NCBI GenBank assembly: GCA_900554275.1
Contig: USGS01000001.1
Location: 5,036 to 69,035, forward strand
Reading direction: 5' to 3'
Source: an uncultured Eubacteriales bacterium
GTDB lineage: Bacteria; Bacillota; Clostridia; Oscillospirales; Oscillospiraceae
DNA length: 64,000 bases
Position numbers and translations under genes: made by a program. Positions 34,299 through 50,105 of this stretch are shown piece by piece (positions within the stretch are counted from its first letter, which is position 1; each line of letters starts with the position of its first letter). The notes beneath the pieces were generated by a model. It ran no database searches and was not told the origin of the DNA. It saw only the letters and a list, made by a program, of their open reading frames with translations.

Positions 34299-34377
34299 AC
34301 GAGTTGTATCTCGCCCCGGCAACCCTTTCAAGCGGGCGGTTACATAGATAAAAAAACACAAAAGGAGAAAAAACAAA

Positions 34378-34797
34378 ATGCTTTCCAAGATCAAGAAGAA
34401 TGAAAAAGGCTTCACCCTGATGGAGATGCTCATCGTCGTCGCCATCATCGCCGTCCTGGTGGCCATCGCCATCCCCACCTTCACCAGCTCCCTGAACAAG
34501 GCCAAGACCGCCACCGACGCCGCCAACATCCGCGCCGGCTATGCCTCCGCCATGCTGAAGGTCCTGGAGTCCGACATGGATGCTACTAAGCCCTCCATCA
34601 CTAACAATACTAAGTTCTACCTGCAGAAGGACGGCACCGTCAGCACTGAGACCACCAATGCTTACGTGTGCAAGGGCGCTTCCGCCGATGATGTCGATGT
34701 TGCCGGCCAGGGTGTCACCTGGGCTAAGGACAACAAGATAACCTACACCTATACCACTGCCGACGGCAAAGTGGCAATCGCTGCGGAAACCAACTAA
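34378..34797 (+). CDS. pilA: Major type IV pilin (prepilin, class III signal)
   Basis: KG|FTLMEMLIVVAIIAVL cleavage/methylation motif with E+5; strong RBS AAAAGGAGAAAAAAC. Confidence 0.8.
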   Translation: MLSKIKKNEKGFTLMEMLIVVAIIAVLVAIAIPTFTSSLNKAKTATDAANIRAGYASAMLKVLESDMDATKPSITNNTKFYLQKDGTVSTETTNAYVCKGASADDVDVAGQGVTWAKDNKITYTYTTADGKVAIAAETN

Positions 34798-34895
34798 CCC
34801 CCTCCCCCTCAACCCATGTACCCCTATATCACCTGCACCACAGAAGCCGAAGGGTTGCGGCTTCTGTGGTGCAGGCATCAGAAAGGATCGCCGCC

Positions 34896-35693
34896 ATGCT
34901 CTACCTCTCCCCCGCCATCACCGCCTACTGCTGCCTCCTGGCCCTGCTGCTGGGCGCCTGCATGGGCAGCTTTCTCAACTGCATGGCCTCCCGCCGGGTA
35001 CACGGCCAGTCCGCCCTCCGCGGCCGCTCCCACTGCGACGCCTGCGGCCACACCCTCGCCCCCCGCGACCTGATCCCCGTCCTCAGCTATCTGCTCTCCA
35101 AGGGCCGCTGCCGCTACTGCGGCGCGAAGCTCTCCCCCCGCCATCTGTGGGCCGAGGTCTGCACCGCCCTCACGTTCCTGCTGCTCCTGCTGCGCTATGA
35201 TATTTCGCTCCAAATGCTCCAAGCCCTGCTGCTGGCCTGCGTCCTGCTGGCCTGCGCCTTTGCGGATTTGGAGGGATATATCATCCCCGACCGGTATGTG
35301 CTGGTCGGCGTTGTCCTTCGTATCCCCTTTTTCTTCCTGCTCCCCGACCTGAAGGGCCAGCTCCTCAGCGCCGCCCTGGGCGGCTTCGCCGTAGGCGGCG
35401 GCCTGCTGCTGGTGGTGCTGCTCTATGAGAAGCTCCGCCGCGTGGACGCCATGGGCGGCGGCGATCTGAAGCTGCTGTTCCTCACCGGCCTGTACCTGGG
35501 CTGGCTGGAAAACCTGCTCTGCCTGCTGCTGGCCTGCCTGCTGGGCATCGTCTTCGGCCTGGCCACACAGAAGCGCCGCGCCGCCCGGGAAAATGCCCAT
35601 CTCATTCCCTGGGGGCCGTCTATCGCCGCCGCCGCCATTCTCACCCTGCTCTTTGGCGACGCCGTCACCTCCGCCTACCTCTCCCTCTTCTGA
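34896..35693 (+). CDS. pilD: Prepilin peptidase PilD (A24 family) with N-terminal zinc-ribbon
   Basis: CDACGHTL..CRYCGAKL; catalytic Asp-containing motifs (FADLEGYIIPD; GGGDLKLL). Confidence 0.85.
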   Translation: MLYLSPAITAYCCLLALLLGACMGSFLNCMASRRVHGQSALRGRSHCDACGHTLAPRDLIPVLSYLLSKGRCRYCGAKLSPRHLWAEVCTALTFLLLLLRYDISLQMLQALLLACVLLACAFADLEGYIIPDRYVLVGVVLRIPFFFLLPDLKGQLLSAALGGFAVGGGLLLVVLLYEKLRRVDAMGGGDLKLLFLTGLYLGWLENLLCLLLACLLGIVFGLATQKRRAARENAHLIPWGPSIAAAAILTLLFGDAVTSAYLSLF

Positions 35694-35704
35694 AGGCGCA
35701 CCCC

Positions 35705-35812
35705 CTTGGCTCTCCCTCTGGGAGAGCTGTCACCGCAGGTGACTGAGAGGGCCTTGGCTCTCCCTCTGGGAGAGCTGTCACCGCAGGTGACTGAGAGGGC
35801 CTTGGCTCTCAA
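35705..35812. repeat. 48-bp tandem direct repeat x2.25, each unit carrying two short palindromes (gctctccctctgggagagc; gtcaccgcaggtgac)
   Basis: cttggctctccctctgggagagctgtcaccgcaggtgactgagagggc repeated; between pilD and pilM. Confidence 0.7.
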
Positions 35813-35920
35813 CAGACCTTCCGCAGGGGGCGATGCCCACGCCGCGAAGCAAGTACCCTTGGGGTGCGCCGCCCCTCCCGCCCAAACCACAAACGCACCC
35901 CCGAAAGTGAGGTAATCCCC

Positions 35921-36919
35921 ATGCCCTCCAACATCATCGCCTTTGACATCGGCACAGCCCAGCTCAAGCTGGTTTGGTTCGCCGGTAAGACCTATAAGCT
36001 GGCCGTCTCCGCCCCTGTCCCCGACGGACTGGTCCGCGGCGGCGTCATCGTCTCCATGGACGCCATGGCGGACTTCCTTTGGCAGCTGGCCAAGGAAAAC
36101 GGCCTGCCCCGCAGGGCGCAGGCCGCCGTGGTGCTGCCCGCCGCCCTGACCTTCACCCGCGTCACCGAGCTGCCCCCCATGACCGCCGGCCAGCTGACCT
36201 ATAACCTGCCCTTCGAGTTCAAGGACTACCTGACCCATGAGAAGAACCAGTATTACTTCGACTACGCCGTGCAGGAGCTGACCCGCGATGAAAACGGCCA
36301 GGTGAAGCAGATGAAGCTCTTCGCCTGCGCCGCCCTCAGGTCCACCGTGGAGGACTACCGCAATATGTTCGCCCGTGCGGGCATGAGGCTGGTGTCCGCC
36401 ATCCCCGAGGAGGCCGCCTACGCCGCTCTGCTGGCCGCCGGCAGCGCCCAGCCGGGCAGCGACGCCGACCACTGTCTGGTGGACGTGGGCCACACCGGCA
36501 TCCGTATGTATGTCCTCCGGGGCGACCGCTTTATCACCCGCCGCACCATCGACCTGGGCGTGGCCGATCTGATCCGCTCCATCTCCCAGCGGCAGGGCGT
36601 GGACGAGCACATCGCCCTGGCCCACCTGCTCTCCGATTACGACGGCGCGACCACCGACCCCGCCAGCCTGGACATCTACCACCGCATGGCCGCCGAGATC
36701 ACCAAGGCCGTCAACTTCTACAACTACAACAACCGGGAAAAGACGCTGGAGCGCGTCTATCTCTGCGGCGGCGGCGCGGCCATCCCCCAAATACACGACG
36801 CCATCCGCCAGCTCACGGATTTGGAGATCATCCCTATCTCCGCCCTGCTGCCCGAGGGCGTCGCCCCCGACGCGCCCTATCTCTATCCCCGCGCCATCGG
36901 CTGCGCCCTGCAAGACTAA
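35921..36919 (+). CDS. pilM: Type IV pilus assembly protein PilM (actin-like ATPase fold)
   Basis: 332 aa; FDIGTAQLKL, PilM family; GAGGTAA RBS. Confidence 0.8.
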   Translation: MPSNIIAFDIGTAQLKLVWFAGKTYKLAVSAPVPDGLVRGGVIVSMDAMADFLWQLAKENGLPRRAQAAVVLPAALTFTRVTELPPMTAGQLTYNLPFEFKDYLTHEKNQYYFDYAVQELTRDENGQVKQMKLFACAALRSTVEDYRNMFARAGMRLVSAIPEEAAYAALLAAGSAQPGSDADHCLVDVGHTGIRMYVLRGDRFITRRTIDLGVADLIRSISQRQGVDEHIALAHLLSDYDGATTDPASLDIYHRMAAEITKAVNFYNYNNREKTLERVYLCGGGAAIPQIHDAIRQLTDLEIIPISALLPEGVAPDAPYLYPRAIGCALQD

Positions 36920-36931
36920 GGAGGTCTCGCC

Positions 36932-37549
36932 ATGAAAACCATATCCGGCGCTGCGTCCTCCCGTGTCAAAGCGCCAAAATACCCCAGCAAACGCACCGTC
37001 AACCTGGCCCAGCGGGAGAGCCATTCCCGCAGCACCCTCACCCTGTCCCTGGGTCTGCTCATCATCCTGCTTCTGTCCTTCTGTGTGGCCAACTTCGGCG
37101 TGCTCCGCCAGCTGGACCGCCAGCGGGCCGCCGAGCAGGCGTACAGCACCGCCCACTCCCAGTACACCGAGATGCAGACGGCGCTGGCGGACTACGACCG
37201 GGTGGAGCTGCAATACCGCACCTGGTCGCGTGCCTGGATGCACGATGAGAACTCCCCCGTCTACGTCCCCGTGGACCGCATGGAGGTGCTGGACCTGGTG
37301 CAGGAGTACCTGATGCCCTACGGCACGGTCAACACCCTGGTGGTGGATGAGGATGTGATGATCGTCACCATGTCCGGTATGAATTTGGAGCAGATCTCCG
37401 CCATGTTCCAGCGGCTTCAGCTCCAGCCCCCCGTCAAGGCCGCCACCCTGACCCTGGCCGCCACACCCAGCGTCAATCCCGGCGACAAGGTGGATTTCTC
37501 CATCACCGTCACCCTCCGGAGCACCGCAGAAAGGGAGGCCGCCCAATGA
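36932..37549 (+). CDS. pilN: PilN-like inner-membrane pilus assembly protein (single TM + coiled coil)
   Basis: TM helix LSLGLLIILLLSFCVANFGVL followed by coiled coil; position after pilM. Confidence 0.6.
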   Translation: MKTISGAASSRVKAPKYPSKRTVNLAQRESHSRSTLTLSLGLLIILLLSFCVANFGVLRQLDRQRAAEQAYSTAHSQYTEMQTALADYDRVELQYRTWSRAWMHDENSPVYVPVDRMEVLDLVQEYLMPYGTVNTLVVDEDVMIVTMSGMNLEQISAMFQRLQLQPPVKAATLTLAATPSVNPGDKVDFSITVTLRSTAEREAAQ

Positions 37550-38076
37550 AGCACGTCTTTACCAACCGCGAAAAGATCCTGCTGGTGATCCTGGCCATCA
37601 TGCTCATCGCCGTGGGCTACTGGAAGCTCATCCTCACCCCCATCAACGACGACATCGCCGATCTCCAGTCCAGAACCGCCTCCGAGCAGGACGCCATGAT
37701 CCAAAGCGCCGCCCGGCTCTCCCAGCTCAACCGCATGAAGTCCGAGCTGGAAACGGTGCTGGCCGATCCCGATGCCAAGCCCCTGCCGGACTATGACAAT
37801 TCCGAGCGGCTGCTGGTGGAGCTGAACACCATTCTCTCCGGCACGGACTATACACTGAATTTCGGCAACACCGTCCCGCTGGAGGACGGCAGCGCCATTA
37901 TGTGCCGCCCCATCACCCTCACCTTTGAGGTCAGCAGCTACACCTCGGCCCGGGCCGTGCTGGACGCCCTGCATGACAGCCAGTATGTGAACCTGATCTC
38001 CGACCTCCGCATGGACCTGGAGGGCCGCACCGTTCAGACCTCCCTCTCCATCACCTACTTTGAATTGCAGAAATGA
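37546..38076 (+). CDS. pilO: PilO-like pilus assembly protein
   Basis: N-terminal TM ILLVILAIMLIAVGYW, coiled-coil; overlaps pilN stop. Confidence 0.55.
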   Translation: MKHVFTNREKILLVILAIMLIAVGYWKLILTPINDDIADLQSRTASEQDAMIQSAARLSQLNRMKSELETVLADPDAKPLPDYDNSERLLVELNTILSGTDYTLNFGNTVPLEDGSAIMCRPITLTFEVSSYTSARAVLDALHDSQYVNLISDLRMDLEGRTVQTSLSITYFELQK

Positions 38077-38093
38077 CCCCCCGCCTGCCCCCC

Positions 38094-38137
38094 CGTCATT
38101 CCGAGCCAGTGACCGACGTCACTGGCGTGGGAATCCG
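38094..38137. repeat. Second copy of REP-like hairpin element
   Basis: see 33010-33053. Confidence 0.6.
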
Positions 38138-38292
38138 CGTCCCCCGTCCCCGCGCCCGCAGGCGCGGAACACCCCCATCCCTTTTTCAAATTTATCCCGT
38201 TTTTTTCAACCTCCTTTATAGAAAAATCCCCATCCTCTTTCATGCTTTTATAAGGTAATTTCAAGTTTTTTTCAACCTCTCAGGAGCATCTC

Positions 38293-38820
38293 ATGACCCC
38301 ATTTTTCTCTCAAAAAACGAAATATCGCAAATATGAAACGGCAAATTCCGGCTTCACCATGGTCGAGCTTCTCACCGTCATCGCCATACTCCTCCTGGTG
38401 GGCCTTATTGCCGTTTTTTCGTTGAGCAAGCTCCGCCGCTCCCTGCGCCAGCACGAGCTGGACGCCAGGGCTGAGATCATCTACGTGGCCGCACAGAACC
38501 GCATGGCCGAGCTGCGTGCCGCGGGCTGCGAGGGCTTATACAGCAAGGGCTTGAGCGATGGAGACAACGGTGTCTATGCCATGGCTTTCGACGGCACGCA
38601 CATGGATGAAAGCTCCCGCGACGTGGAATTCTGCTATCTCTATGTCAACGATGCTTCGGATAAACGCACCGGTGCGCCCGCCGCCCTCCTTCCCGACACC
38701 GCGGTGGACAAGGACCTGTGGAACGGCTGCTGGTGCATCGAATATGCCCCCTCAACCGGCAGTATTTACGCTGTTTTTTACAGCGAGTCCCCCCTCCCCT
38801 CCCCTCCCACACCGCTCTGA
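38293..38820 (+). CDS. Minor (pseudo)pilin with prepilin N-terminal cleavage/methylation domain
   Basis: NSG|FTMVELLTVIAILLLVGLIAVF; ends in C-rich tract where giant ORF continues in -1 frame. Confidence 0.7.
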   Translation: MTPFFSQKTKYRKYETANSGFTMVELLTVIAILLLVGLIAVFSLSKLRRSLRQHELDARAEIIYVAAQNRMAELRAAGCEGLYSKGLSDGDNGVYAMAFDGTHMDESSRDVEFCYLYVNDASDKRTGAPAALLPDTAVDKDLWNGCWCIEYAPSTGSIYAVFYSESPLPSPPTPL

Positions 38821-41800
38821 ACGACGATTATCGAAATTTCAACTACCGCATCCGCACCGCCTCCGTCGGCTATTACGGCGGAGATATTGCACAAACACAG
38901 GATATTAGCAAATTTAACCCCAGTATCAGCATAGAAAATACAGAAAAGCTCACTGTTACTTTTTATTCCAACAACCCCTCCGATGACACCTCCGCCCATC
39001 CTTTGACCTTCACCATTACCATTTCTGACCAGTTCGGCGGCAGCTATACCCGCACCGTCACCGGCCTGCAGGGCGGCCTGCAGCAGCTGGACAGCCGCAA
39101 CTATAAATACCAGTGGGTGCTGGACGATCTCACCTCCTCAAATAAACGATTTTTCGCGCAGACCGTCGGTAAAGTTTCCTGCGGCACCCCCATCACCATC
39201 AAGCTCACCGTATCGTCCACCGATCCTTCTATTGACACGGTTTTCACCACCCGGACCACCAACGGTCTGTTCGATGACAGGACCGATCTGGGCTATGGTG
39301 AGAACACGGCGCTGCTGGCGTATGGACGACATTTGGCTAATTTGTCCGATACGTCCCATGTCAATGCTGCCATCATCACCTCCGCCGTCCAGGTTGACGA
39401 TATTTCGTTTTTCGATGACCCCGCCGACAAAACCGACTGGTACAGCCTTTACACCGCAAATGGTGTAAGATTTTCTCCAATTTACAACAAAAATCTGACT
39501 TCTTTCAGCGGAATACATTTTACCAGCGGCAGTTATGAACAACATATCATCAACGGGCTGACCGTTTCCTCCCCGTCCGCCGCCGGGCTGTTTTCCACCT
39601 TTTCCGGTAAAATTTCCAATGCCATTTTAGTCAATTCCCAGATCACCGGCGGCGTTGCCGGCGGGCTGGCCGCCCGGACCGACGGCACTCTGACGCTGGA
39701 AAACTGCCGCGTCTATCTGACAGAACTGAGCGGGCTGAAGGCCGCCTCCGCCGACGCTGTTCCGGCGCGCATCACCGGCACGACGGTCGGCGGCCTGGTG
39801 GGTATTGCCGACCATTCGCTAACTATTCAGAACTCCTTTGCTTCCACTATTATTAAAGGCAGCACCGCCGCCGCCGGCCTGGTGGGCCACGCGCAGGGCG
39901 CTGTCAGCGTCAGCCGGTCCTACGCCGACAGCTACCTCACCGCGCCGGTCACCGGAGGGCTGGTGGGCACGACCGGCAGCATTAGCGGTCTGTCGCTCAT
40001 AGACAGCTATGCCGCCGGATACCAGGTGGCCACCGATGCGGCAGCAGGCTTTGTGGCCGGGCGGCTGGCCAACGCGCACAGCGCGTACAGCGCCTGCGCC
40101 TTCCCCGGCACGCCCCAGATCATATACACCACCGCGGCGGAAGGGAATGCCGCGAATGTCAGCTCGGTATTCTACCTGACCAGTGGCCTGGACGGGCGGA
40201 GCATCCACAGCCTTACCGGGACAACCCAGGGCCTGCCCTATGCGCAGATGAGCGCCGCATCGTTCCTGACAGCACTGAACAGCACCGCCTTCACCACCGC
40301 CAGCGCGGACACCACTGTGCCCTACAACCTGCTGAGCCAGGGTCTGAGCACCTACTCCTATCCGCTGCTGACGGGAATGAACCACTACGGCGACTGGCAG
40401 GCGGAGTTTGAGGCCGAGGCGCTGGTGTACTACGAGCGGTACGCGGACGATACGGTGGGCTTCTTCGGCGGCAACGTGGACAATTTGGCCGATGACAAGA
40501 CTATCGTCGGCGACGGCTACGCCGTGGCCCTGTCCGCGCCGCTGGGCGGCGCACAGACCATCACGGTGCAGTGCGGCACGGTGAGTACGGTGCTGAATGC
40601 CTCCTCCCTGTACTATTCCAACAGCTATGAGGGCATCTCCTATTACCTGTACCCCGTCAGCGCGCTGACCTCCGAGATCTCTCACAGCGGGAGCTTCTAC
40701 CGGACGGTGACCGTCAATCAGCGAAGCTACCAATTCAACCCCTACTTTGCCAAGACAGTGACCACCGGCAGCGGCGCGGACAGCGCTCCCGGCACGATCT
40801 ATCTGCGGACGGCGCGCCATCTGTACGAGCTAAGCCTCCATTATGACGACCTTGCCGCGGCCACGGTGAACACCACGTTCCGGCAGGAGCGGGATATTAA
40901 CTACGCCGCCTATGGGTGGACTACATACACCAGTTCCACCGATGCCGTCACCAGCCAAGCGCCTATCCACAGCGCGGCAAACACGGCGGATGTGAGCGAT
41001 ACCGGCGGCTTCCGGGCCGCCTACAACGGCGACTACCACACTATTCAGGGCGTGTCCTTCGTGAGCGCGGGGAACGATGTGGGCATGTTCGCCGTGGTCG
41101 CGCCCACGGGTACGGTGCGGAACGTGACGCTGCTGTCCTCGGGGACGGAGCGCGTGGAGCGCAGCGGGCTGATCCAGGGCAGCACCACCGTCGTCTACAT
41201 GGGTGTGCTGGCCGGGCGGAACTACGGCACGATCAGCAACTGTGCCGTGTCCGACTACGGCTTCGGCAACGGCATGGGCATACTGGCCTATCAGCACAGC
41301 ACAGTCTATATGGGCGGCCTGGTGGGCGGCAACCTGTACCACAAGACCCACAGCGGGCGCATCCTCTCCAGCGAGGCCAACTGCCCCCTGGTGCAGGTAT
41401 CCTCCTACAATGCCTCCATTTACGCCGGCGGGTTTGCCGGCAGCAACGCCGGCGGCAGCATCCAGTCCTGCTACGCGCTGGGTGTACTGAAGGCGCTGGA
41501 CGTGAGCAGCAGTACGGTGCGGCTGTGCGGCTTCGCCGGTGAAAACACCGGCGGCGCGCTGGCCTACTGCTACAGCGCCACGGCCCTGACCGCCGCCGGT
41601 GAGGCGGAGGTATACGGCCTGACCCGCACCGGCGGCAGCGCGGCCCAGTGCTACTATCTGGACGGCGGCACATACGCCTACAACAACGCGCTGTATGCCT
41701 ACAACGTATCCCACAACAGCTTCAGCGCCAACGCGGCCCAGTCGCCCATTACGGGAGAAAGGCTGGAGAGCCAGCGCCTGTACGGCTTTTCCAAGGTCAC

Positions 41801-44800
41801 CGGCAGCGGTACGGAAACGGTGTACCCTTACCCCGCCGTGGTGCGGGATCGCATCGGCCGCGCCGTACACTACGGCACATGGCCGGTGCAGCAGCACATC
41901 GGCACGATGGGCGTGTTCTACTGGGAGCGGGAGCAGGGCGGCAACGCCGGCTACCACCTGAGCTACATCGGTACAGACAACGGCGTGGCCTTTTCCGGCA
42001 GCACGCTGTGCGTCCAGCACAACGACAGCGGCGTGGTGACGGAGTACGGCTACGGCTACTTCTTCAAGCCCGGCGGCCTGACGGACACGGTGCAGCTCGA
42101 TGTGTCCGCCAACTGCTACCTGGGCGCGGCCAACTCCACGGCGGCCAGCGCGCTGGAGGCACAGATGCCGGAGTATGAGTTCGTGGCCTACACCACCGGG
42201 GCAGGAAAGGCCACCGACACCGAGTTCACCGGGGCGATGTACCTGACTGGCGAAGAAACCAACTGCACGTGGACACTGACGTATGGCGGCGCAACAAACA
42301 TATACACGCTGTGCCCGTTCTTCGCCGACGCTATGAGTCTGGACAGCATCACCGACACACAGTTCAGCGATGCCCACAAGCCGGGTACGGCGGGCAAGCC
42401 TTATCAGGTGCGCTCCGTGAGCCAGCTGCAGAATATCAACTGGAACTGCGTTGAATTGGATGCCACCTCCTCCATCAAGGGTGCGCCGGAGCAAATGCCT
42501 TTTATGGATGATCAAGGCAAAAACTACTGGAGCGCGTATCCCTATTTGGTACGGTATCAGCCCAAGGACACTACCCACGTAAAAAATAACCAGTGGCAGG
42601 ATCAGCGCGATGCGGCCATCACCCTTATCTCCAACAGCGGAAAGGGGCTGTACTGGGCGCAGTCACATGACGTAGATGCCTATGTCGAAGTGGGCAAGGC
42701 GGACGACAACTTTACACCGATCGGCGGCCTTCAGGACATCATGGAGATAGAAAGTCCGTACTCAAAGCCCTGCACCGCCTTCTTCGCGGGCAGCTTTGAC
42801 GGACAGGACTACACCATCCGCAACATTTCCATCACCAGCAGTGCCCAATGCGTGGGGCTGTTCGGCTTCACCTCCGGCGCACAGCTTCGGAACATCATCA
42901 TGTACTCCGACCGGGGCAGCGTTATCAAGAATACCGCTGACGGGCAAAACTGGTACTGCCTGGGCGGTTTGGTGGGCTTTGCCGGGGCTGGTTCTGCTGA
43001 CACCAGCACTGCCGCCCTTACCAACTGCTCTGTGTCCGGCTACACCATTCAGGACAACTGGAAGAATATCCCCGGCTGGGGCGGCGGCTGCGTGGGCGGC
43101 CTGGTGGGCGCGACCAACATGAACATCACCGGCTGCACCGCCGTAACGGACATCGTGCTGCGCATCGCTTATGAAAAGGGATGGACCAACCTGCGCGTGG
43201 GCGGCATCGCCGGCGTGTGCCGGGCCACGCTGGATAAGTGCTATGCCGGCGGCTCAATCAAGAGCATCTCTACCGTGCCTCTGAAGGAAAATGCCAGCAA
43301 AAGCACCAGCATTTGGGCCAGTGGGCTGGTGGGCGGTATTATGCTCCGCTATGAGGGCGGGCTCTCCAAGCTGGTGGGAAAGGCGGACAACACGCTCTAT
43401 GTAAAGAACAGCTACACCTTTGTGGAGATGCCTAAGAGCGGCGAGAATACCGTCCGCCGGTCTATGGCCATCGCTTCCAACGGCGAGATGCAGGACAATA
43501 ACTTCGACCAGGTGAACAACTCGAACGCCTATATTGAAAACTGCTACGCACTGGTGGACGCTGTGCAGAGCACCGATGATCACAAGGCGCAAAAAGGTGC
43601 CAACTGGAACAACCAGGTCGAGCTCAGTCGTGCTAATAAAGCCGGATGGCGCTACACATATCTCACCAACAACGGCAAGACCCCCTACATCACCTATGAG
43701 CAGATGCAGACGGAGCTGAAGGACTGGCTCAACGGCGGAGCATCCGCCTCGTCCCTGCGCTTCGACACCGTCACCGTGACGGAGAACGGCGCGCCCATCC
43801 CCGGCAAGTACAGCTTCCCCGGCGCGAACGCGGAGATGCTGGACGGCCTGGATTTCCCCTTCCCCACCATCCTGACCCAAAAGGACGTGGCCGGAAGAAC
43901 CGTGAACGTACACTACGGGCGCTGGCCCACCAGCGGCCTGTACTGGGCGCGGACGCGAACCACGCTGGACCTGTGCGCGGACCGCACCGGCCAGGGTGCG
44001 CCCACGCTGACGGTGAAGCTGTATCTCAAGCCCGACGGCACGACGCTGAGCGGGACGCCCACGCTGACGCTGGTGAACGACACCGACGGGCAGGTCAGCA
44101 CTCTGCTGGACTGCACCGCGCCGGCCTACAACAGCGCCGAGCGCTGCTGGGAGGTCACGTTCACCGGCAAGGGGCGGACGGGGCTTGCCGTTGCCCGGGC
44201 CGCGCTGGGCGGCCATACCGCCGAGCTGACCATTGACGTGACACAGACGCTGCGGCTGACCAACGACAAGGCCTCCTCCGGTGTGACCGTGACCTACGGC
44301 GGTGGAGAGCAGACCGTACAGCTGCTGCTGACGGACTCCAAAAACAATCCCATCGTGGTCAAGAGCGGCGAACGGCTGGTCTGGGAGGTCACCGCCACGA
44401 AGCAGGGCGGCGGGTACGATCCCGGCGACGAGAGCATCGTGGAATGCAGCGCCGTTACGGCAGTGGACGCGGCCAGTGGGCTGTATCAGTTCACCATCTC
44501 CGGGTTCTCCAGCGGCGTCTCCACCGTGACGGCAGCGTGTACCTATACCTATCCGGAGGGCGACGAGCTCAAGACCGTGACGGCGCGGTCGCTGCTGTCC
44601 GCCAAGTCCACCCGCGACGCGGTGGGACTTGTGTACGACGCGGCGGAGGATACCTCCGTGTATACCGTCGCCAGCGGCGTGTACCGCCGGGCGGAGAATG
44701 ACGTCGCCCAGCAGGGCACGGCGGACGTGACCGTGCCGGAGTTCCCCCGGGAGGCTGGGAAGCTGTATCTGTTCGCCGGCAGCGGCTATACCGGGCTGGG

Positions 44801-45032
44801 AGGCTTTACGGTCGATCTCACCGGGCTGACCGCCGTGGACGCGGCGGGCGATCCCGCGGCGGTGACCGCCGCCGGGCTGGGCGACATACAGTCGGCCGAG
44901 GGCGTGCAGTACCGGGAGGTGCTGTTCACCGGCGCGGACGCGGCACTTATCAGCGGCGAGATCCGCTTGACCCACAGCATGACCGGTACCGTCTATACGC
45001 TGTATCTGAAGGACTACACATACGCACCGTAA
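38718..45032 (+). CDS. Giant (2104 aa) GLUG-motif repeat surface/adhesin protein; GTG start overlapping minor pilin by 103 nt, or 3' continuation of it via frameshift in C-rich tract 38797-38817
   Basis: Multiple GGLVG/AAGLVG/GGLVGG GLUG-type repeats; no internal ATG for >280 codons after overlap; beta-rich low-charge composition. Confidence 0.7.
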   Translation: MERLLVHRICPLNRQYLRCFLQRVPPPLPSHTALNDDYRNFNYRIRTASVGYYGGDIAQTQDISKFNPSISIENTEKLTVTFYSNNPSDDTSAHPLTFTITISDQFGGSYTRTVTGLQGGLQQLDSRNYKYQWVLDDLTSSNKRFFAQTVGKVSCGTPITIKLTVSSTDPSIDTVFTTRTTNGLFDDRTDLGYGENTALLAYGRHLANLSDTSHVNAAIITSAVQVDDISFFDDPADKTDWYSLYTANGVRFSPIYNKNLTSFSGIHFTSGSYEQHIINGLTVSSPSAAGLFSTFSGKISNAILVNSQITGGVAGGLAARTDGTLTLENCRVYLTELSGLKAASADAVPARITGTTVGGLVGIADHSLTIQNSFASTIIKGSTAAAGLVGHAQGAVSVSRSYADSYLTAPVTGGLVGTTGSISGLSLIDSYAAGYQVATDAAAGFVAGRLANAHSAYSACAFPGTPQIIYTTAAEGNAANVSSVFYLTSGLDGRSIHSLTGTTQGLPYAQMSAASFLTALNSTAFTTASADTTVPYNLLSQGLSTYSYPLLTGMNHYGDWQAEFEAEALVYYERYADDTVGFFGGNVDNLADDKTIVGDGYAVALSAPLGGAQTITVQCGTVSTVLNASSLYYSNSYEGISYYLYPVSALTSEISHSGSFYRTVTVNQRSYQFNPYFAKTVTTGSGADSAPGTIYLRTARHLYELSLHYDDLAAATVNTTFRQERDINYAAYGWTTYTSSTDAVTSQAPIHSAANTADVSDTGGFRAAYNGDYHTIQGVSFVSAGNDVGMFAVVAPTGTVRNVTLLSSGTERVERSGLIQGSTTVVYMGVLAGRNYGTISNCAVSDYGFGNGMGILAYQHSTVYMGGLVGGNLYHKTHSGRILSSEANCPLVQVSSYNASIYAGGFAGSNAGGSIQSCYALGVLKALDVSSSTVRLCGFAGENTGGALAYCYSATALTAAGEAEVYGLTRTGGSAAQCYYLDGGTYAYNNALYAYNVSHNSFSANAAQSPITGERLESQRLYGFSKVTGSGTETVYPYPAVVRDRIGRAVHYGTWPVQQHIGTMGVFYWEREQGGNAGYHLSYIGTDNGVAFSGSTLCVQHNDSGVVTEYGYGYFFKPGGLTDTVQLDVSANCYLGAANSTAASALEAQMPEYEFVAYTTGAGKATDTEFTGAMYLTGEETNCTWTLTYGGATNIYTLCPFFADAMSLDSITDTQFSDAHKPGTAGKPYQVRSVSQLQNINWNCVELDATSSIKGAPEQMPFMDDQGKNYWSAYPYLVRYQPKDTTHVKNNQWQDQRDAAITLISNSGKGLYWAQSHDVDAYVEVGKADDNFTPIGGLQDIMEIESPYSKPCTAFFAGSFDGQDYTIRNISITSSAQCVGLFGFTSGAQLRNIIMYSDRGSVIKNTADGQNWYCLGGLVGFAGAGSADTSTAALTNCSVSGYTIQDNWKNIPGWGGGCVGGLVGATNMNITGCTAVTDIVLRIAYEKGWTNLRVGGIAGVCRATLDKCYAGGSIKSISTVPLKENASKSTSIWASGLVGGIMLRYEGGLSKLVGKADNTLYVKNSYTFVEMPKSGENTVRRSMAIASNGEMQDNNFDQVNNSNAYIENCYALVDAVQSTDDHKAQKGANWNNQVELSRANKAGWRYTYLTNNGKTPYITYEQMQTELKDWLNGGASASSLRFDTVTVTENGAPIPGKYSFPGANAEMLDGLDFPFPTILTQKDVAGRTVNVHYGRWPTSGLYWARTRTTLDLCADRTGQGAPTLTVKLYLKPDGTTLSGTPTLTLVNDTDGQVSTLLDCTAPAYNSAERCWEVTFTGKGRTGLAVARAALGGHTAELTIDVTQTLRLTNDKASSGVTVTYGGGEQTVQLLLTDSKNNPIVVKSGERLVWEVTATKQGGGYDPGDESIVECSAVTAVDAASGLYQFTISGFSSGVSTVTAACTYTYPEGDELKTVTARSLLSAKSTRDAVGLVYDAAEDTSVYTVASGVYRRAENDVAQQGTADVTVPEFPREAGKLYLFAGSGYTGLGGFTVDLTGLTAVDAAGDPAAVTAAGLGDIQSAEGVQYREVLFTGADAALISGEIRLTHSMTGTVYTLYLKDYTYAP

Positions 45033-45054: not shown

Positions 45055-45660
45055 ATGGGCGCACTCCACAGAAAATTGCATGAGCAGCGGGGCGCGTCCA
45101 TGCTGATGGCCCTGTTCCTACTGCTGGTGGCGCTGATGGTCAGCGCGGTGGTCATCGCCGCGGCCTCCAGCGCCGCCACCACCCTGCGCTCCGACAAGAC
45201 CCAGGAGCAGTCGTCGCTGGCGGTATCGTCGGCGGCGGAGTATGTGCGGGACGCCTTCCTCGGCAAAGAGATGGACGGTACGATCACCACAGACTACTGG
45301 ACAGGCAGCGCATCGTACAGCAGCGACAGCGGCGGGGCGTTCCGGGACTTCGTGTCCTACGCCATACCGGAGCTGTACCGAAACCAGAATGCGCTGCCCC
45401 GGCGGACGTACAGGCTGCGTCTGTCCGACGACGCCGTGGAGGACGTCTGGGCCGACTTTGAGATGAGCTACGGGCAGAACGAGAACACGGAATACCCCAC
45501 CTACATTCTCACCGTGACGCTGCGGAACTGGGAGACCACGCCGGGGGAGCACCCATGCAGCATGACGCTGCTGCTGTGCAGCAATCTGACCGAGCGCTCC
45601 CAATGGGGTTACACATACACAGATGTGACCTGGGACGGGTACAACGTGATACAGCGATAG
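45055..45660 (+). CDS. PilX-like minor pilin (prepilin-like N-terminus lacking Glu+5)
   Basis: QRGASMLMALFLLLVALMVSAVVIAAAS. Confidence 0.55.
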   Translation: MGALHRKLHEQRGASMLMALFLLLVALMVSAVVIAAASSAATTLRSDKTQEQSSLAVSSAAEYVRDAFLGKEMDGTITTDYWTGSASYSSDSGGAFRDFVSYAIPELYRNQNALPRRTYRLRLSDDAVEDVWADFEMSYGQNENTEYPTYILTVTLRNWETTPGEHPCSMTLLLCSNLTERSQWGYTYTDVTWDGYNVIQR

Positions 45661-45666
45661 GAGGCG

Positions 45667-45969
45667 TTGGGCATGAGGAAAAAACTGCGCTCCCAAAGGG
45701 GCGACACGCTGGTGGAGACGCTGGCGGCGCTGCTGATCGTGGTGCTGACCATGGCGTTCCTGGCCACCTCCCTTGTGACGGCGGCCCGCATCAACGCCGG
45801 TGTGCGGGAGACGGACACCTCCCTGCACTATGACGGCAGTGCCATCCCTGTCCAGGGGACGCTGACCATCACGCGGCAGGGCGGCACGGGGACAGGCAGC
45901 GCCGTGCGCAAGAGCGTGTCCGTGTATGAAACAGATGGCGGCTATCGCTACTACGTCTACCAGGAGTGA
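45667..45969 (+). CDS. Minor pilin (prepilin N-terminal domain)
   Basis: QRG|DTLVETLAALLIVVL. Confidence 0.7.
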   Translation: MGMRKKLRSQRGDTLVETLAALLIVVLTMAFLATSLVTAARINAGVRETDTSLHYDGSAIPVQGTLTITRQGGTGTGSAVRKSVSVYETDGGYRYYVYQE

Positions 45970-45994: not shown

Positions 45995-46495
45995 ATGAAG
46001 CAAAAGAGAATAGCGGGCATGACGCTGATGGAGCTTCTGTGCGCCCTGGCGGTGGTGCTGCTGGTCAGCGCGGGCATGGTGTTGGGCGTGTCGCTGGCGG
46101 TGCGGAGCTACGAGCGCTCCGTGACCAATTCCGAGGCCCAGGTGCTGTGCTCCACGCTGCAGACCATCGTCAACGACGAGCTGCGCTACGCCGGTACGCT
46201 GGAGTATGAAAACGGCAGGGTGGTGGGCTTTTTCAGTCAGGAGCACGCCAACGCGGACAGCAAGTACTCCCGGTTCACCACCGACAGCGACGGCCGGGTG
46301 CTGCTGGGCGGTCAGAAGCTGCTGCCCAACAACGCCTATCCCCATGGGCTGCGGGCCGCGGTGGAGCTGACGGACTATGATAAAGCGACGCGCATTTTCA
46401 CCGCCGTCGTCACCGTGACGGACCGCAGCGGCGACACGCTGGCCCAGACGGAGTTTCAGGTGAAGCAGCTGAACGAACCGGCAGAGCAGACATAA
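45995..46495 (+). CDS. Minor pilin (prepilin N-terminal domain)
   Basis: IAG|MTLMELLCALAVVLLV. Confidence 0.7.
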   Translation: MKQKRIAGMTLMELLCALAVVLLVSAGMVLGVSLAVRSYERSVTNSEAQVLCSTLQTIVNDELRYAGTLEYENGRVVGFFSQEHANADSKYSRFTTDSDGRVLLGGQKLLPNNAYPHGLRAAVELTDYDKATRIFTAVVTVTDRSGDTLAQTEFQVKQLNEPAEQT

Positions 46496-46561: not shown

Positions 46562-48595
46562 TTACTCATTCACCGGGTACTCGCTGTTGGCCAATTTCAT
46601 AGTATAGCCCACAACAGGCGCGTCATAGCTGCTGTTGCCATAGGAGACATAGTAATCGCCGTAGGCGCACCAATAGTAGCCACTTTCGACCAAGTACTTG
46701 CCGGAAATTTCTTTGGTCACGTCCGTACCACTGGGCTGGTCATTGGACTTGAAGGTGGAAGTCCCGGTCACCATTTCATAGGTATCATTACTGTCATATA
46801 CCACACTGATGTTCTCCACGGTGCAGTTCTCCACGGTGGCGTTGTCCACGCCGTTGCCGCGCTGGATGTTGCCAGCCAGGCCACCGATGTCATAGGCCGC
46901 ATGGATGGTGTTGTTCTGGGACACGCAATTCTTGAAGGCGACCTTCACGCCGGGGTCTGCGCCCATGCCCAGCAGGCAGCCGATCTTACCATAGCCGCCG
47001 ATGAAGCTGTTGGTGACCGTAACATTTTCAAATAGGGTCGTACCGTAGGTATAGGCCACGACGATGCCGCCGACATTGCCGCTGTAATAGTTCTCATAGC
47101 CTTTAGCCCTAAGCACACTCGCGCCGTCAAAGGTCAGGTTCTTGATGGTGAGATTGCCGGTAGCATTGCTGATAAAGCCGAAGCCATAACCTCCATTATT
47201 GGAATTGGTGCAGCTGCGGACCAGCAGGTTTCTGATGGTATGGCCGTTGCCGTTGATGGTCAGATTGTTGACGGGGTTAATGGGACGCCAGAAGCCTGCG
47301 CCCAGGTCGATATCCGCCGTGATGTTCAGGGTGTAGCCGTTGTAATTGACCTTTTCATTCGTGACCTCATACTTGAACAGGGCCAGCTCCTCAGCGGAAG
47401 CGATGGTGATGACCTTGTTCTCCGTATCAACGGGGGTGGCATAGGTATTGGCCTTGTTGTTATCCCACTGGAACTTGTCGGACGTATAGGTGAAGGGGGA
47501 GAAGGTCTTGGTGAGCATGGTCACCAGGCCGGTGGCGCTGTCATAGTAGAACTCCTGGTCAGCGTCCAGCCACTGCATCGCGCTGCAGCGGCTCATCTTC
47601 TGACCATTGTGGTCGATCTCAACCTGCGACAGCCCTTTCTCGATGTAGAACTCCACCTTGATGGGCTGGTCGTTATCAGCGGCCAGACCGTTCATGGAGA
47701 TGTCCAGTGTCTTGGGAGCGTTCTGAGTAACTTCGACCGTAAAGTTGGCGGGGGTCTCTGCGTCCTCGATGACCAGCTCCAGCTGGGTCGTGCCGCTGTC
47801 CACCTTAGCACCGGCGGGAACGGTGGCCCGGGCAACGGGATTGCCGTCGGCATTGGTCTCACCGGATGTCAGCGTCGCTTTCTTAGTCACAAGACCGGTC
47901 TCCGCGTCCACCTCAACGGCCGCGGCGGCATAGACGGGATACTGCGCGTCCTTATCGTAGTCGTTTTTGCTGCTGTCGTACTCGCCGGTCATCTGGGTGG
48001 CGTAGACCGTAACGGCCACACCGTCGATGGACAGGCCCTGATAGTCGTTGTTGGCGCTGGTCTTCATCGTGCCGGAAATCTTGATGACATCCTTGTTGGT
48101 CTCGTTGGCGTTCAGCACATACTCATCGCTGCCAGTCGCAAGAGGTGTTCCACCGTAAGTAATGGTCCAGTCGATGACGTCATTCAGGTTCGCCGTGCTG
48201 GTGGGCGTACGGTTCGTCTCAATGCCGGTGATCTGCACCTTATATTTCAGGTTCAGGTTTCCGGCGTTGCTGACACGCAGCTCAGGCAGCCGATAGGTAG
48301 CGCCCGGCTCCCACAGGATGTCAGCGTTCTGCTCCACAGTCCCATCATCCTTCATTCGCAGGAAGCTCAGCGTCTCGCCCCTGGCATCCGCCCAAGCGAT
48401 GGGCTTGCCACTTCCATCCCAAGCCGTCGCCATTTCCAGGCCCAGCTTCAGATCACCCGCCTTGATGGTGTTGACGTTGGCGGTGGCGGTGTCCGTGAAC
48501 CACGCGAAGGTCGTGCCCACCAGCATGACCACGCACATGACCAGCGCCATGATACTGGTCAGCAGTGCGCGCTTGGTTGCTCTGCGTTCTCTCAT
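46562..48595 (-). CDS. Secreted 677-aa protein with SipW-cognate-type (TasA/camelysin-like) signal peptide and GLUG-motif repeats
   Basis: N-terminus ...MLVGTTFAWFTDTATANVNTIKAGDLKLGL matches AxFSD/NtF.AG.L.L SipW-type signal; internal IGGLAGN, GNVGGIV motifs. Confidence 0.7.
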   Translation of the reverse strand: MRERRATKRALLTSIMALVMCVVMLVGTTFAWFTDTATANVNTIKAGDLKLGLEMATAWDGSGKPIAWADARGETLSFLRMKDDGTVEQNADILWEPGATYRLPELRVSNAGNLNLKYKVQITGIETNRTPTSTANLNDVIDWTITYGGTPLATGSDEYVLNANETNKDVIKISGTMKTSANNDYQGLSIDGVAVTVYATQMTGEYDSSKNDYDKDAQYPVYAAAAVEVDAETGLVTKKATLTSGETNADGNPVARATVPAGAKVDSGTTQLELVIEDAETPANFTVEVTQNAPKTLDISMNGLAADNDQPIKVEFYIEKGLSQVEIDHNGQKMSRCSAMQWLDADQEFYYDSATGLVTMLTKTFSPFTYTSDKFQWDNNKANTYATPVDTENKVITIASAEELALFKYEVTNEKVNYNGYTLNITADIDLGAGFWRPINPVNNLTINGNGHTIRNLLVRSCTNSNNGGYGFGFISNATGNLTIKNLTFDGASVLRAKGYENYYSGNVGGIVVAYTYGTTLFENVTVTNSFIGGYGKIGCLLGMGADPGVKVAFKNCVSQNNTIHAAYDIGGLAGNIQRGNGVDNATVENCTVENISVVYDSNDTYEMVTGTSTFKSNDQPSGTDVTKEISGKYLVESGYYWCAYGDYYVSYGNSSYDAPVVGYTMKLANSEYPVNE

Positions 48596-49130: not shown

Positions 49131-50105
49131 TTATCCGGCGGCATATCCGCCGCCTACGTCATTGCCCAGATCGCAGGTGTAGAGCCACTCCACCACATCG
49201 CCGTTCTGCAGCGCGTAGCGGGAGCAGCCGTAGTTGGGAAACCAGCCGTTGACCCGGTACATCCAGCCCGAGCCCTGGCTTACATCGAACTCGTACAGAT
49301 TGTTGATGCCCTCCACATAGGCGCTGTTATACATGGGCGTCCAGCTGGCCTCCATGTGGATGCCGTTCTCCCGACAGACCCGCTGCAGCACGTCATAGAC
49401 GCTCTCGCCCTCGCTGAACGTGACGGTGGTGCTGGGAAGGATCACGCCGTCGGAGGGGACTAAGGGCTTCTTCGCCGCGGCGGTGTCTGCGTCCCACTCG
49501 TCCCAGGCGTCCCAGTTGGCCAGGATCGTGCCGCAGGAGATGGAGATGGTGCAGGTATACTTGGTGGTCTCGTCCACCGTGGTGTCCTGCGGCTCGGAGG
49601 GTGTGGGCTTTCCCTCGGGAACGGGGTCAGTCTCATACTTGTCCTTGCCCGTATCAGGATCAATGACCTGCTCCGGCTGCTTCTTCTGCTCGTCCTGTTT
49701 CTTTTTTTCTTCCTCTAACCGTTTCTGTTCCTCTTGCTTTTTCTGTTCCTCTTGCTTTTTCTGTTCCTCTTGCTTTTTCTGTTCTTCTAACCGCTTCTGC
49801 TCCTCCAGCTTTTTGGCCTCGTCAGCGGCTGTCTGGCCCGCGTTCGCCGCGTCTGTCTTTGTATTGGTCTTGGTGTCAGTCGTATCGGTCTTGGCGTCGG
49901 TCTTGTCTCCAGCCGCCGTGCCGTCCTTCTTGTCCTCCGTCCTGGCCGTGTCGCCGGTCTTGCTGTCAACGGTCTGTTCCTGTTTGGTATCGGGCGCTGC
50001 GTCGCCGTCAGCCGCCTTTTTCTTGCCGCAGGCGGTGCAGGTCAGCAGCATGGCCAGGGCCAGCGCCACCAGCCAAAAGCTACGTTTTCTCATCATGCTC
50101 TCCAT
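49131..50105 (-). CDS. Lipoprotein with E/K/Q-rich repeat linker and C-terminal DUF4430 (transcobalamin-beta-like) domain
   Basis: Lipobox LLTCTAC; (EEQKKQ)n repeats; C-terminal SGWMYRVNGWFPNYGCSRYALQNGDVVEWLYT matches DUF4430 pattern. Confidence 0.7.
   Translation of the reverse strand: MESMMRKRSFWLVALALAMLLTCTACGKKKAADGDAAPDTKQEQTVDSKTGDTARTEDKKDGTAAGDKTDAKTDTTDTKTNTKTDAANAGQTAADEAKKLEEQKRLEEQKKQEEQKKQEEQKKQEEQKRLEEEKKKQDEQKKQPEQVIDPDTGKDKYETDPVPEGKPTPSEPQDTTVDETTKYTCTISISCGTILANWDAWDEWDADTAAAKKPLVPSDGVILPSTTVTFSEGESVYDVLQRVCRENGIHMEASWTPMYNSAYVEGINNLYEFDVSQGSGWMYRVNGWFPNYGCSRYALQNGDVVEWLYTCDLGNDVGGGYAAG
49690..49810. repeat. 18-bp tandem repeat (ctgttcctcttgcttttt) x~4 encoding EEQKKQ repeats
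   Basis: seen directly; in-frame so length variation would keep frame. Confidence 0.7.

Follow-up and report, generated by a model that had tools for sequence, protein, structure and literature searches.

A probable recent frameshift in the conserved gene for a giant modular type IV minor pilin in an uncultured Eubacteriales bacterium

Background

Modular pilins, which consist of a pilin module, a short linker and domains not specific to type IV pili (T4P), are known from Streptococcus sanguinis, in which PilB has a vWA module and PilC has a lectin module (Raynaud et al. 2021, PMC8179133; PMC9934059). The most extreme multi-domain case cited in the InterPro survey of modular pilins has 860 residues (Raynaud et al. 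2021, PMC8179133). In Thermus thermophilus, ComZ is a DNA-binding pilin of 554 residues with a beta-solenoid of about 380 residues, and it was argued on steric grounds to fit solely at the pilus tip, in a complex with another minor pilin (PMC6561018). Phase variation by frameshifting in a homopolymeric G/C tract was reported for pilC of Neisseria (Jonsson et al. 1991, as cited in PMC5953494), and Neisseria opa loci with 1-4 repeat units were classed as non-variable (PMC5953494).

In the present study, we analyzed a stretch of 64,000 nucleotides (hereafter, the window) from an uncultured Eubacteriales bacterium (contig USGS01000001.1 of assembly GCA_900554275.1). An earlier note, made from the sequence of the window, had proposed that a prepilin gene and a following 2104-aa ORF might be joined through a C-rich tract. 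We found that the window probably carries a conserved gene for a giant modular type IV minor pilin in a recently frameshifted form, and that the split is probably a sporadic loss of function, not a programmed switch. This family of giant modular type IV pilins appears to be little described.

Results and discussion

The two ORFs and the repeat tract

The prepilin reading frame present in the window (38293-38820 (+)) starts with ATG and encodes 175 aa. As the earlier note had claimed, it ends within the C-rich tract, with the TGA (38818-38820) directly after tcccccctcccctcccctccc; the product has an out-of-frame tail of 8 aa (PSPPTPL). The 2104-aa ORF (38718-45032 (+), GTG start) was also confirmed to be in the -1 frame. 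The -1 frame is open from 38664, which gives an overlap of 157 nt between the two frames. The in-frame starts past 38718 are GTG 38733, TTG 39003, and GTG 39117, with no in-frame ATG before the one at 40248. Because this ATG is 475 codons downstream of the pilin stop, the earlier statement that more than 280 codons lack an in-frame ATG holds and is conservative. A well-spaced Shine-Dalgarno sequence was found at none of these starts.

Tandem Repeats Finder (TRF) called the tract at 38791-38808 as the pentanucleotide repeat CCCCT x 3.6; the zero-frame codons over it are TCC CCC CTC CCC TCC CCT CCC. The intact alleles have 2.6 copies, with the sequence TCCCCCCTCCCCTCCCAC. The aligner placed the extra unit of the window at 38791-38795, a placement that is arbitrary within the repeat. 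The features of the locus are listed in Table 1.

Table 1. Features of the giant pilin locus (positions in the window)
Feature	Position	Strand	Basis
pilB	30223-31914	+	Gene calls and Pfam on L002, mapped to the window
pilT	31928-32986	+	Gene calls and Pfam on L002, mapped to the window
pilC	33090-34298	+	Gene calls and Pfam on L002, mapped to the window
Major pilin	34378-34797	+	Gene calls and Pfam on L002, mapped to the window; NCBIfam
Prepilin peptidase, A24	34896-35693	+	Gene calls and Pfam on L002, mapped to the window
pilM	35921-36919	+	Gene calls and Pfam on L002, mapped to the window
pilN	36932-37549	+	Gene calls and Pfam on L002, mapped to the window
pilO	37546-38076	+	Gene calls and Pfam on L002, mapped to the window
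Whole disrupted gene, giant modular type IV minor pilin	38293-45032	+	Uninterrupted 2244-aa ORF after removal of one CCCCT unit
Truncated product, 175 aa: 20-aa leader, class III signal (G↓FTMVE), pilin module, tail	38293-38820	+	N_methyl PF07963; TIGR02532 on the intact allele
Pentanucleotide tract CCCCT x 3.6, one unit more than in intact alleles	38791-38808	+	TRF, alignment, pairwise indel listing
Passenger/effector part, -1 frame, no usable start or signal peptide	38809-45032	+	ORF reading, domain matches, AF2 models
GTGCGGCT x 2 direct repeat, intact in the window	41517-41532	+	TRF, pairwise indel listing
Minor pilin, 201 aa, G↓ASMLMA, no Glu5 (GspK/PilX-like feature)	45055-45660	+	Syntenic in 62/80 loci
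Minor pilin, 98 aa, G↓DTLVE	45673-45969	+	Weak XpsI/GspI match; syntenic in 60/80 loci
Minor pilin, 166 aa, G↓MTLME	45995-46495	+	TIGR02532; syntenic in 60/80 loci

Relatives read through the junction

The closest intact allele (L005/P0050) encodes 2244 aa and is 98.6% identical in nucleotide sequence, and the sole indel between the two is one extra CCCCT (5 nt) in the window. As this is the single indel and the relatives are fused, the split is best regarded as an allele-specific frameshift caused by a 5-bp tandem duplication. The difference from the intact alleles is one whole unit of 5 nt, and not the change of +/-1 in the C-run that had been suggested.

Of 12 members retrieved from the same protein cluster, the 10 full-length ones (2227-2269 aa) read AVFYSESPLPSHTALNDDYRNFNYRIRTASVGYYGGD uninterrupted over the junction, and two short fragments stop before it; at the tract site, the cluster proteins have SPLPSH or SPLPPH. 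The matches from the first search that cover the junction (37-90% identical) have the fused reading, the ORF is single and intact in nine complete human-gut metagenome contigs, and one more contig, cut by its end, reads through the junction. All 57 complete species-level loci, including six cultured isolates, are single ORFs with the prepilin leader G↓F(T/S)(L/M)xE and 1721-5137 mature residues. Homologue clusters (50% identity, E <= 1e-10) numbered 722; among the matches listed, most are 2000-3400 aa long with an N-terminal match. Thus, the one fused ORF that the earlier note had proposed to look for in orthologues was clearly present in every sound relative checked across the junction. The fused modular pilin anticipated there was borne out, but its size is 2244 aa and not about 2280 aa. 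From these alignments, both ORFs belong to a single putative giant pilin-adhesin gene that is conserved in many gut Clostridia.

The frameshift allele is a rare one, carried only by the window and by a near-identical scaffold (L002, 99.99% identity) that differs by two SNPs and one 48-nt repeat copy. Downstream of the insertion, the reading frame of the window is free of other stops and indels and has a dN/dS of 0.196 (0.199 between other alleles), and the remainder of the T4P operon is intact. The event looks recent from the sequences compared.

Conserved recoding as the cause of the split was rejected, since the orthologues are single in-frame ORFs. A -1 slip of the P-site tRNA-Pro on C CCC in a fraction of the ribosomes, or RNA polymerase stutter on C6, could in principle still yield a little full-length pilin in the window, or the passenger could be expressed on its own from GTG 38718 or TTG 39003; these readings seem to us very improbable. 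The overlap of the two frames would suit such events, the C6 run lies inside it, one added C restores the frame (junction SESPPPLPSHT), and AAGGA is located 3 nt upstream of GTG 38718. However, the two-frame arrangement is not conserved, the relatives being in frame, and the tract has no in-register slippery heptamer X XXY YYZ. A stimulatory RNA structure is also lacking (fold of 38800-38920, z = -0.68); neither of the features that mark a programmed -1 frameshift, a conserved two-frame layout and a heptamer with a structure, was found here. C6 is short for transcriptional slippage, and no start codon for reinitiation is near the pilin stop. A separately initiated passenger would carry about 30 junk residues and no signal peptide. 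Expression from GTG 38718 through the long overlap, which the earlier note had offered as a fallback, fares no better, as its product would have no signal peptide and the arrangement occurs in no relative.

Assembly and independent disruptions

It is conceivable that the organism has an intact 2-unit tract and that the extra CCCCT was introduced by contig joining or polishing over the low-complexity, C-rich repeat. The frameshift allele is present in only two near-identical records, which may come from one sample. The ENA copy comes from the '_METAG-scaffold' pipeline, which left N-gap breaks within the same giant pilin gene in other samples. In addition, the 175-aa product is on record in no Logan assembly, though the PilT variant of the window occurs in the Logan assembly of SRR5106295. 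We nevertheless consider such an artefact unlikely: the window and L002 are different assemblies and have the insertion in common, and a clean 5-nt tandem duplication is atypical as a short-read error.

Disruptions of the same gene elsewhere also argue for a real mutation. In GCA_963632705.1 (L001/L009), GTGCGGCT x 2 has become x 3 by a duplication of 8 bp, so that this assembly has an independent frameshift through a like event. A nonsense allele, CAG to TAG at codon 511 (L003/L004), was found in two independent assemblies, made by two independent assemblers, and CG is deleted in the gene in L006. From these sequences, the split in the window is one among several independent disruptions of the putative giant pilin gene in natural populations.

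Possible phase variation

Phase variation typically acts on surface adhesins, and the CCCCT tract could be a reversible ON/OFF switch of a tip adhesin, similar to the poly-G slippage in Neisseria pilC, with the strain caught in the OFF state. A change in unit number within a perfect short tandem repeat is reversible in principle, and the downstream frame is pristine. The insertion is at the module boundary, so that an OFF state would still encode the complete pilin module. On the other hand, the 3.6 units of the window and the 2.6 units of the intact alleles are below the PhasomeIt cut-off of at least 5 units for pentanucleotide repeats (PMC5953494), and are not a hypermutable length. Among the other sound sequences in which the tract DNA was read, the tract has exactly 2 units (nine metagenome contigs and L001) or is point-mutated and less repetitive (L088 and L089). 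A 1-unit tract occurs solely in L101, a noisy contig riddled with 1-nt indels; repeat number is thus not polymorphic among strains beyond the 3 units of the window and L002. In the other disrupted alleles, the break lies at an unrelated site and stems from another type of mutation. We therefore regard a switch, which the earlier note had raised as a possibility, as distinctly improbable, with no positive evidence for it in the repeat or the other alleles.

The window and Neisseria pilC are alike in that a frameshift in a 5'-proximal repeat would switch off a pilus-tip adhesin, the adhesin role being a presumed one here. In Neisseria, however, conserved tracts of 9-20 units show polymorphism between strains, whereas the gene of the window has 2-3 pentamer units and its intact alleles are invariant. 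Neisseria PilC is also not a pilin, unlike the giant pilin.

Architecture of the intact giant pilin

The class III prepilin signal, encoded in the 175-aa ORF of the window, is ...ETANSG↓FTMVELLTVIAILLLVGLIAVF. It has G-1, about 20 hydrophobic residues after the cleavage site, and E+5, as in type IV pilin leaders, and the leader motif is kept in the 57 complete orthologues. TIGR02532 scored 17.9 bits on the intact allele, exceeding the cut-off of 16.3, and Pfam N_methyl PF07963 scored 20.3 bits, slightly under the cut-off of 21.2. In an AF2 model of the N-terminal half of a 90% identical homologue (P0001), pLDDT is 70-95 across residues 20-610. The model predicts a pilin fold, a long N-terminal helix (alpha1, 23-76) on a four-stranded antiparallel sheet (94-97, 113-118, 146-152, and 157-164), with pLDDT of about 70-90. 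After residue 164, a beta-sandwich and then a beta-helix follow. The break in the window sits at this predicted boundary between the pilin module and the passenger.

The order in the intact protein is the signal peptide, the pilin module (about residues 1-165; 21-165 after the leader), an SPLP linker, and a passenger of about 2000 residues, composed of a beta-sandwich, three GLUG beta-helix blocks, and C-terminal tandem Ig-like domains. About 10 GLUG-like motifs occur in the three blocks, and Pfam Glug PF07581 matched four stretches (E = 9e-8). The motifs named in the earlier note are real, while its label of a GLUG-repeat ORF was overstated. With these domains, the intact P0050 fits the definition of a modular pilin; the allele of the window falls outside it because the 5-nt insertion parts the pilin module from the passenger.

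In Foldseek, the N-terminal-half model matched 3n6z (E = 1.3e-5; TM-score 0.57, normalised to the target). The best structural matches of the first beta-helix block are the beta-helices of the M26 IgA1 protease and BACOVA_03286 (PDB 3n6z, 7jgj, and 7uvk), which share Pfam Glug with it and, unlike the giant pilin, are not pilins. Neither HExxH nor HxxEH metalloprotease motifs are present in the entire protein, so the likeness to M26 IgA1 proteases is restricted to a non-catalytic domain. The C-terminal AF2 model matched the Ig tandems of InvD and titin. These beta-helix and Ig-like fold classes suggest that the passenger is an adhesin with a direct role in pilus function.

S. sanguinis PilB and PilC resemble the giant pilin in having a class III signal peptide, a small pilin module, a short linker, and a passenger that is not pilus-specific, and in being encoded in the T4P operon of a monoderm bacterium with a presumed role as a tip-displayed adhesin. 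They differ in that each has one extra module, vWA or lectin, against about 2000 residues or more of GLUG beta-helices and Ig-like tandems in the giant pilin. Unlike theirs, the gene of the window is split at the linker. ComZ likewise has a beta-helical passenger on a pilin scaffold, but its solenoid is inserted in the pilin fold, whereas the modules here are C-terminal to the fold. No sequence similarity to ComZ and no sequence match in the PDB were found.

Expected consequences of the frameshift

In the intact protein, the leader would be cleaved by the A24 peptidase of the operon. If the protein works like other modular pilins, its pilin module would hold it at the pilus tip alongside the three small minor pilins encoded downstream, and the passenger would serve there as an adhesin. 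Domain architecture and synteny suggest display on pili and an adhesin function. In the frameshifted allele, the repeat has grown from 2 to 3 CCCCT copies through replication slippage, right at the linker. Since translation stops after 175 residues, only the bare pilin module could be made. The passenger, in the -1 frame without a start codon or a signal peptide, is most likely not produced, and the expected phenotype would be pili without the giant adhesin. Pilus assembly may suffer if the truncated pilin is unstable, and 6.2 kb of untranslated mRNA may lower the expression of the downstream minor pilins and thereby impair assembly.

Operon context

The T4P machinery (30223-38076) is immediately upstream of the giant pilin gene, with the prepilin peptidase and the assembly genes alongside, and this gene order is kept in about 50-60 species-level loci. 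The three further minor pilins that the earlier note had recognized downstream were confirmed, and their synteny extends over about 60 genomes; the giant pilin is the first gene of a four-minor-pilin block conserved in about 60 species-level genomes. The PilY1 beta-propeller family gave no match in the Pfam and NCBIfam scans, and the large putative adhesin, unlike PilY1, is itself a pilin here. The arrangement is otherwise like that of PilY1 with PilVWX/FimU and of GspH-I-J-K, with four co-encoded minor pilins, one of them without Glu5, tied to a very large tip adhesin. A correspondence of the individual minor pilins to GspH, I, J, or K is weakly suggested by their sequences.

Structure of the split gene

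The two ORFs described in the earlier note, which had taken them for parts of a single giant pilin-adhesin gene broken within a C-rich tract, were found with the same coordinates, with the stop of the first ORF in the tract and the second ORF in the -1 frame (see the table). The TGA codon (38818-38820) directly follows tcccccctcccctcccctccc. The -1 frame is open from 38664, giving an overlap of 157 nt between the two frames. Possible start codons in this frame are GTG (38718 and 38733), TTG (39003), and GTG (39117), and the earliest in-frame ATG is at 40248, 475 codons beyond the pilin stop. No convincing Shine-Dalgarno sequence was found at any of the starts of the passenger frame.

Features of the pilus locus and its surroundings
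Feature	Position (strand)	Length	Remarks
GGDEF-EAL protein	27969-30200	743 aa	Directly 5' of pilB
Segment deleted in L001/L009	33061-38179	5.1 kb	
Tandem repeat, prepilin peptidase/pilM gap	35704-35810	48-nt unit	Perfect, 2.2 copies
Gap 5' of the giant pilin gene	38077-38292	216 nt	C-rich runs and an inverted repeat (CCAGTGACCGACGTCACTGG) first, then an AT-rich stretch with repeated TTTTTTTCAACCTC motifs
Prepilin ORF	38293-38820	175 aa	N-terminus MTPFFSQKTKYRKYETANSG|FTMVELLTVIAILLLVGLIAVF; class III prepilin signal, Gly-1, Glu+5
Passenger ORF	38718-45032	2104 aa	-1 frame relative to the prepilin ORF
Pentanucleotide tract	38791-38808		CCCCT x 3.6 (Tandem Repeats Finder)
8-nt repeat	41517-41532		GTGCGGCT x 2, as in L005; x 3 in L001/L009
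SipW-dependent-type protein	46562-48595 (-)	677 aa	Convergent with the pilus operon
Tandem repeat	49693-49814	18/36-nt unit	TCCTCTTGCTTTTTCTGT..., 5.3 or 3.4 copies, 80-84% matches
Giant surface-type protein	50168-57850 (-)	2560 aa	

Cause of the frameshift

Relatives were retrieved with the first 700 residues of a hypothetical fusion, made by adding one C to the window gene, as the query. The matches spanning the junction, at 90, 63, 50, 37% identity and below, were all uninterrupted there (for example, the proteins P0001 (...AVFYSESPLPSHTDLNGSYRNFNYRARTASVGYYGGD) and P0004 (...YSASPLPDPNTLDDYRSYQYRRRMGAKVGYYGGD)). The 90%-identity cluster that contains the 175-aa protein has 57 members; of the 15 listed, 12 have 2237-2269 aa, and the 2009-aa product of the window co-clusters with further proteins of 2227-2258 aa. 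The cluster members are single fused proteins, several of them carrying SESPLPSHTALNDDYRNFNYRIRTASVGYYGGD, which is identical to the downstream frame of the window. The search of orthologous loci for a single fused ORF, suggested in the earlier note, thus confirmed that one gene is interrupted.

At the DNA level, alignment with L001 (the locus from GCA_963632705.1) showed five additional bases in the tract of the window. The closest intact allele, L005 (Logan SRR31716156), is 98.6% identical to the window over 6735 nt, and the sole indel in the whole gene is an insertion of CCCCT. When this unit was deleted in silico, exactly 2244 codons were obtained, the length of the intact protein P0050. 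As the window differs from intact alleles by a single 5-nt CCCCT indel, we conclude that the frameshift is a 5-bp tandem duplication (2 to 3 units); this difference also rules out the previously proposed +/-1 change in the C run as the cause. In itself, the split seems an ordinary mutation.

Recoding at the junction, or separate expression of the passenger through the long overlap, is highly improbable. The two-frame arrangement was not found in orthologues, and the product from GTG 38718 or TTG 39003 would have no signal peptide, leaving the earlier suggestion of long-overlap expression without support. An in-register X XXY YYZ heptamer is absent from the zero-frame codons TCC CCC CTC CCC TCC CCT CCC, and the predicted fold of the RNA at 38800-38920 is no stronger than that of shuffled sequence (z = -0.68).

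Rarity and age of the frameshift allele

The 175-aa product was recorded on only two contigs, one in NCBI (122,680 bp) and one in ENA (67,272 bp). The ENA scaffold (L002) and the window are 99.99% identical, the scaffold differing in two SNPs and in one copy fewer of the 48-nt repeat between the prepilin peptidase and pilM genes; the insertion is thus shared by two distinct assemblies. The PilT variant of the window also occurs on a Logan contig of SRR5106295. It is unlikely that the extra CCCCT unit is an assembly artefact.

Each of nine complete contigs from human-gut metagenomes contains a single intact ORF (2209-2248 codons), and a tenth contig, which ends within the gene, is open across the junction. 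The tract in all ten is the 2-unit TCCCCCCTCCCCTCCCAC or a point-mutated form of it, and no tract-length variants were found in the pattern scan of metagenome DNA. A 1-unit tract in L101 was rejected as evidence of slippage because the contig contains dozens of 1-2-nt indels, and L104 was disregarded (coverage 1.9x, 24-nt deletion). True phase variation by the CCCCT tract, as the earlier note had considered, is very unlikely: the tract is shorter than the PhasomeIt threshold of at least five pentanucleotide units, and opa alleles of Neisseria that have 1-4 units are counted as non-variable (PMC5953494).

In the window, the passenger frame after the break contains no additional stop or indel, and the other genes of the pilus operon are intact. 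The dN/dS value downstream of the break is 0.196 between the window and L005, similar to that between another allele, L003, and L005 (0.199). These observations indicate that the mutation is recent, and the window probably carries a sporadic loss-of-function allele. In the window strain, the extra unit would leave a bare 175-aa pilin module and silence the passenger.

The 96 mismatches between the window and L005 are mostly located in the first 3 kb of the gene, with only two positions in the last 3.2 kb. This uneven distribution in the aligned sequences suggests a recombination mosaic between alleles. Relatives also vary by swapped segments and in-frame indel blocks (P0034 versus P0050, two of the proteins).

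Other disrupted alleles

Three other kinds of disruption were observed. L001/L009 (GCA_963632705.1) have a frameshift caused by an 8-nt duplication, L006 lacks one CG from CCGCG, and codon 511 is changed from CAG to TAG in both L003 (ENA, MEGAHIT) and L004 (Logan), which are independent assemblies. The genes for PilC, the major pilin, the prepilin peptidase, PilM, PilN, and PilO are also missing from the L001/L009 MAG; together with the frameshift, this deletion suggests that the entire pilus system is decaying in that lineage, or that the MAG is misassembled. L107 and L108 were rejected as split alleles, as their breaks are N-gaps in the scaffolds. The word-indexed protein search gave no protein above about 1925 aa, even though some clusters have representatives of 2244-2268 aa; thus, fragments and split genes are over-represented in its lists, which are unusable for estimating allele frequencies.

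Domains and predicted structure

When intact, the gene encodes a giant modular type IV minor pilin, and annotation of the locus as a small minor pilin and a separate 'GLUG protein' lacking a start should be avoided. The only Pfam/NCBIfam matches were N_methyl/TIGR02532, Glug, and a weak Beta_helix, and no entry was matched in the PDB sequence search. Residues 20-610 are confidently predicted in the AF2 model of P0001 (90% identical). The model contains alpha1 (23-76) and four beta-strands, the last ending by residue 164, followed by a short helical linker region including the SPLP site, a beta-sandwich (about 209-322), and a right-handed beta-helix (about 400-610). According to this model, the frameshift at residue 168 lies where the pilin module meets the passenger.

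The top structural matches of the model were the GLUG beta-helix domains of BACOVA_03286 (3n6z, E = 1.3e-5) and IgA1 proteases (7jgj, 7uvk); a protease identity was rejected, as HExxH and HxxEH are both absent from the protein. GLUG-like motifs cluster at about residues 455-590, 1006-1050, and 1556-1640. AF2 confidence is low at about residues 660-1095 and 1150-1880 of the full protein, and the C-terminal half is poorly modelled apart from the last 360 residues or so, which form tandem Ig-like domains matching Yersinia InvD, titin, and S-layer proteins. By its beta-helix and Ig-like domains, the passenger may mediate adhesion.

A family of giant pilins

A scan of one genome per species gave 80 loci, mostly from Oscillospiraceae and other gut Clostridia, including six cultured strains (Neopoerus faecalis, Vescimonas sanitatis, Oscillibacter valericigenes An907, Oscillibacter sp. 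MSJ-31, Dysosmobacter segnis BX15, and Hominenteromicrobium mulieris). All 57 complete loci are single ORFs with the leader G|F(T/S)(L/M)xE and a mature length of 1721-5137 residues (median 2333). The genes have a conserved order, pilB-(pilT)-pilC-pilA-pilD-pilM-pilN-pilO-[giant pilin]-mp201-mp98-mp166, and the giant pilin and the three small minor pilins were never separated across the surveyed loci. The three minor pilins pointed out in the earlier note are thus real and syntenic; the tip complex proposed there is drawn by analogy, in which the pilin module would anchor the giant protein at the pilus tip beside them. One of the three lacks Glu5, as do GspK/PilX.

An exhaustive HMMER search with the N-terminal 460 residues matched 722 clusters (50% identity) with E <= 1e-10, of which 110 reached E <= 1e-30. 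The matches listed were mostly 2000-3400 aa long (up to 5147), and the N-terminus was the matched part.

The modular-pilin concept is already known from PilB and PilC of S. sanguinis. An InterPro survey found more than 1200 modular pilins with 264 architectures, the most extreme multi-domain case cited having 860 residues (PMC8179133), and the beta-solenoid of T. thermophilus ComZ, of about 380 residues, was argued to fit the pilus tip only (PMC6561018). Our literature search found no paper on GLUG pilins or giant Oscillospiraceae pilins, and the gene family is apparently an undescribed and striking extreme of this design.

We give an even chance to the following reading taken as a whole. A large, essentially undescribed family, with by far the largest pilins known (1700-5100 residues), would comprise hundreds of 50%-identity clusters and occur in at least about 60 species of Oscillospiraceae from the gut and of related Clostridia, cultured strains included. 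Its members would have a canonical pilin module bearing a passenger of about 200-500 kDa with GLUG beta-helices and Ig-like domains. They would occupy the tip of a type IV pilus in monoderm cells, where a conserved complex of four minor pilins would have the giant protein as its first member. Natural alleles cut exactly at the module linker, as here, or broken elsewhere would mark ongoing selection in the gut for shedding the adhesin while the pilus is kept.

The disrupted gene is more interesting than the split, since the modular-pilin design reaches passengers of 2000-5000 residues, and an entire clade of human-gut Clostridia, abundant but little studied, encodes the giant subunit within the conserved four-minor-pilin block. 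A pilin of about 240 kDa raises questions of export, processing, passage through the Gram-positive wall, and the binding target, as well as of the recurrent broken alleles in natural populations. Dysosmobacter segnis, Oscillibacter valericigenes, Vescimonas sanitatis, Neopoerus faecalis, and Hominenteromicrobium mulieris are cultured carriers suited to experiments.

Neighbourhood of the pilus locus

No promoter or terminator was found by consensus scan in the gap between pilO and the giant pilin gene. The GGDEF-EAL gene is syntenic in about 12 related loci, and PilB has an MshEN-type N-terminal domain; the GGDEF-EAL neighbour hints at control of the pilus by c-di-GMP. The 48-nt repeat unit contains two short palindromes, CTCTCCCTCTGGGAGAG and GTCACCGCAGGTGAC. 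Downstream, the 677-aa protein, which adjoins the operon in relatives too, carries a signal peptide of the SipW-dependent type (TIGR04088, E = 8.6e-8) and faintly matches Peptidase_M73 (camelysin/TasA-like). The 2560-aa ORF, whose L001 orthologue has weak Cadherin-like and Prenyltrans matches, is a second giant surface-type protein near the pilus locus.
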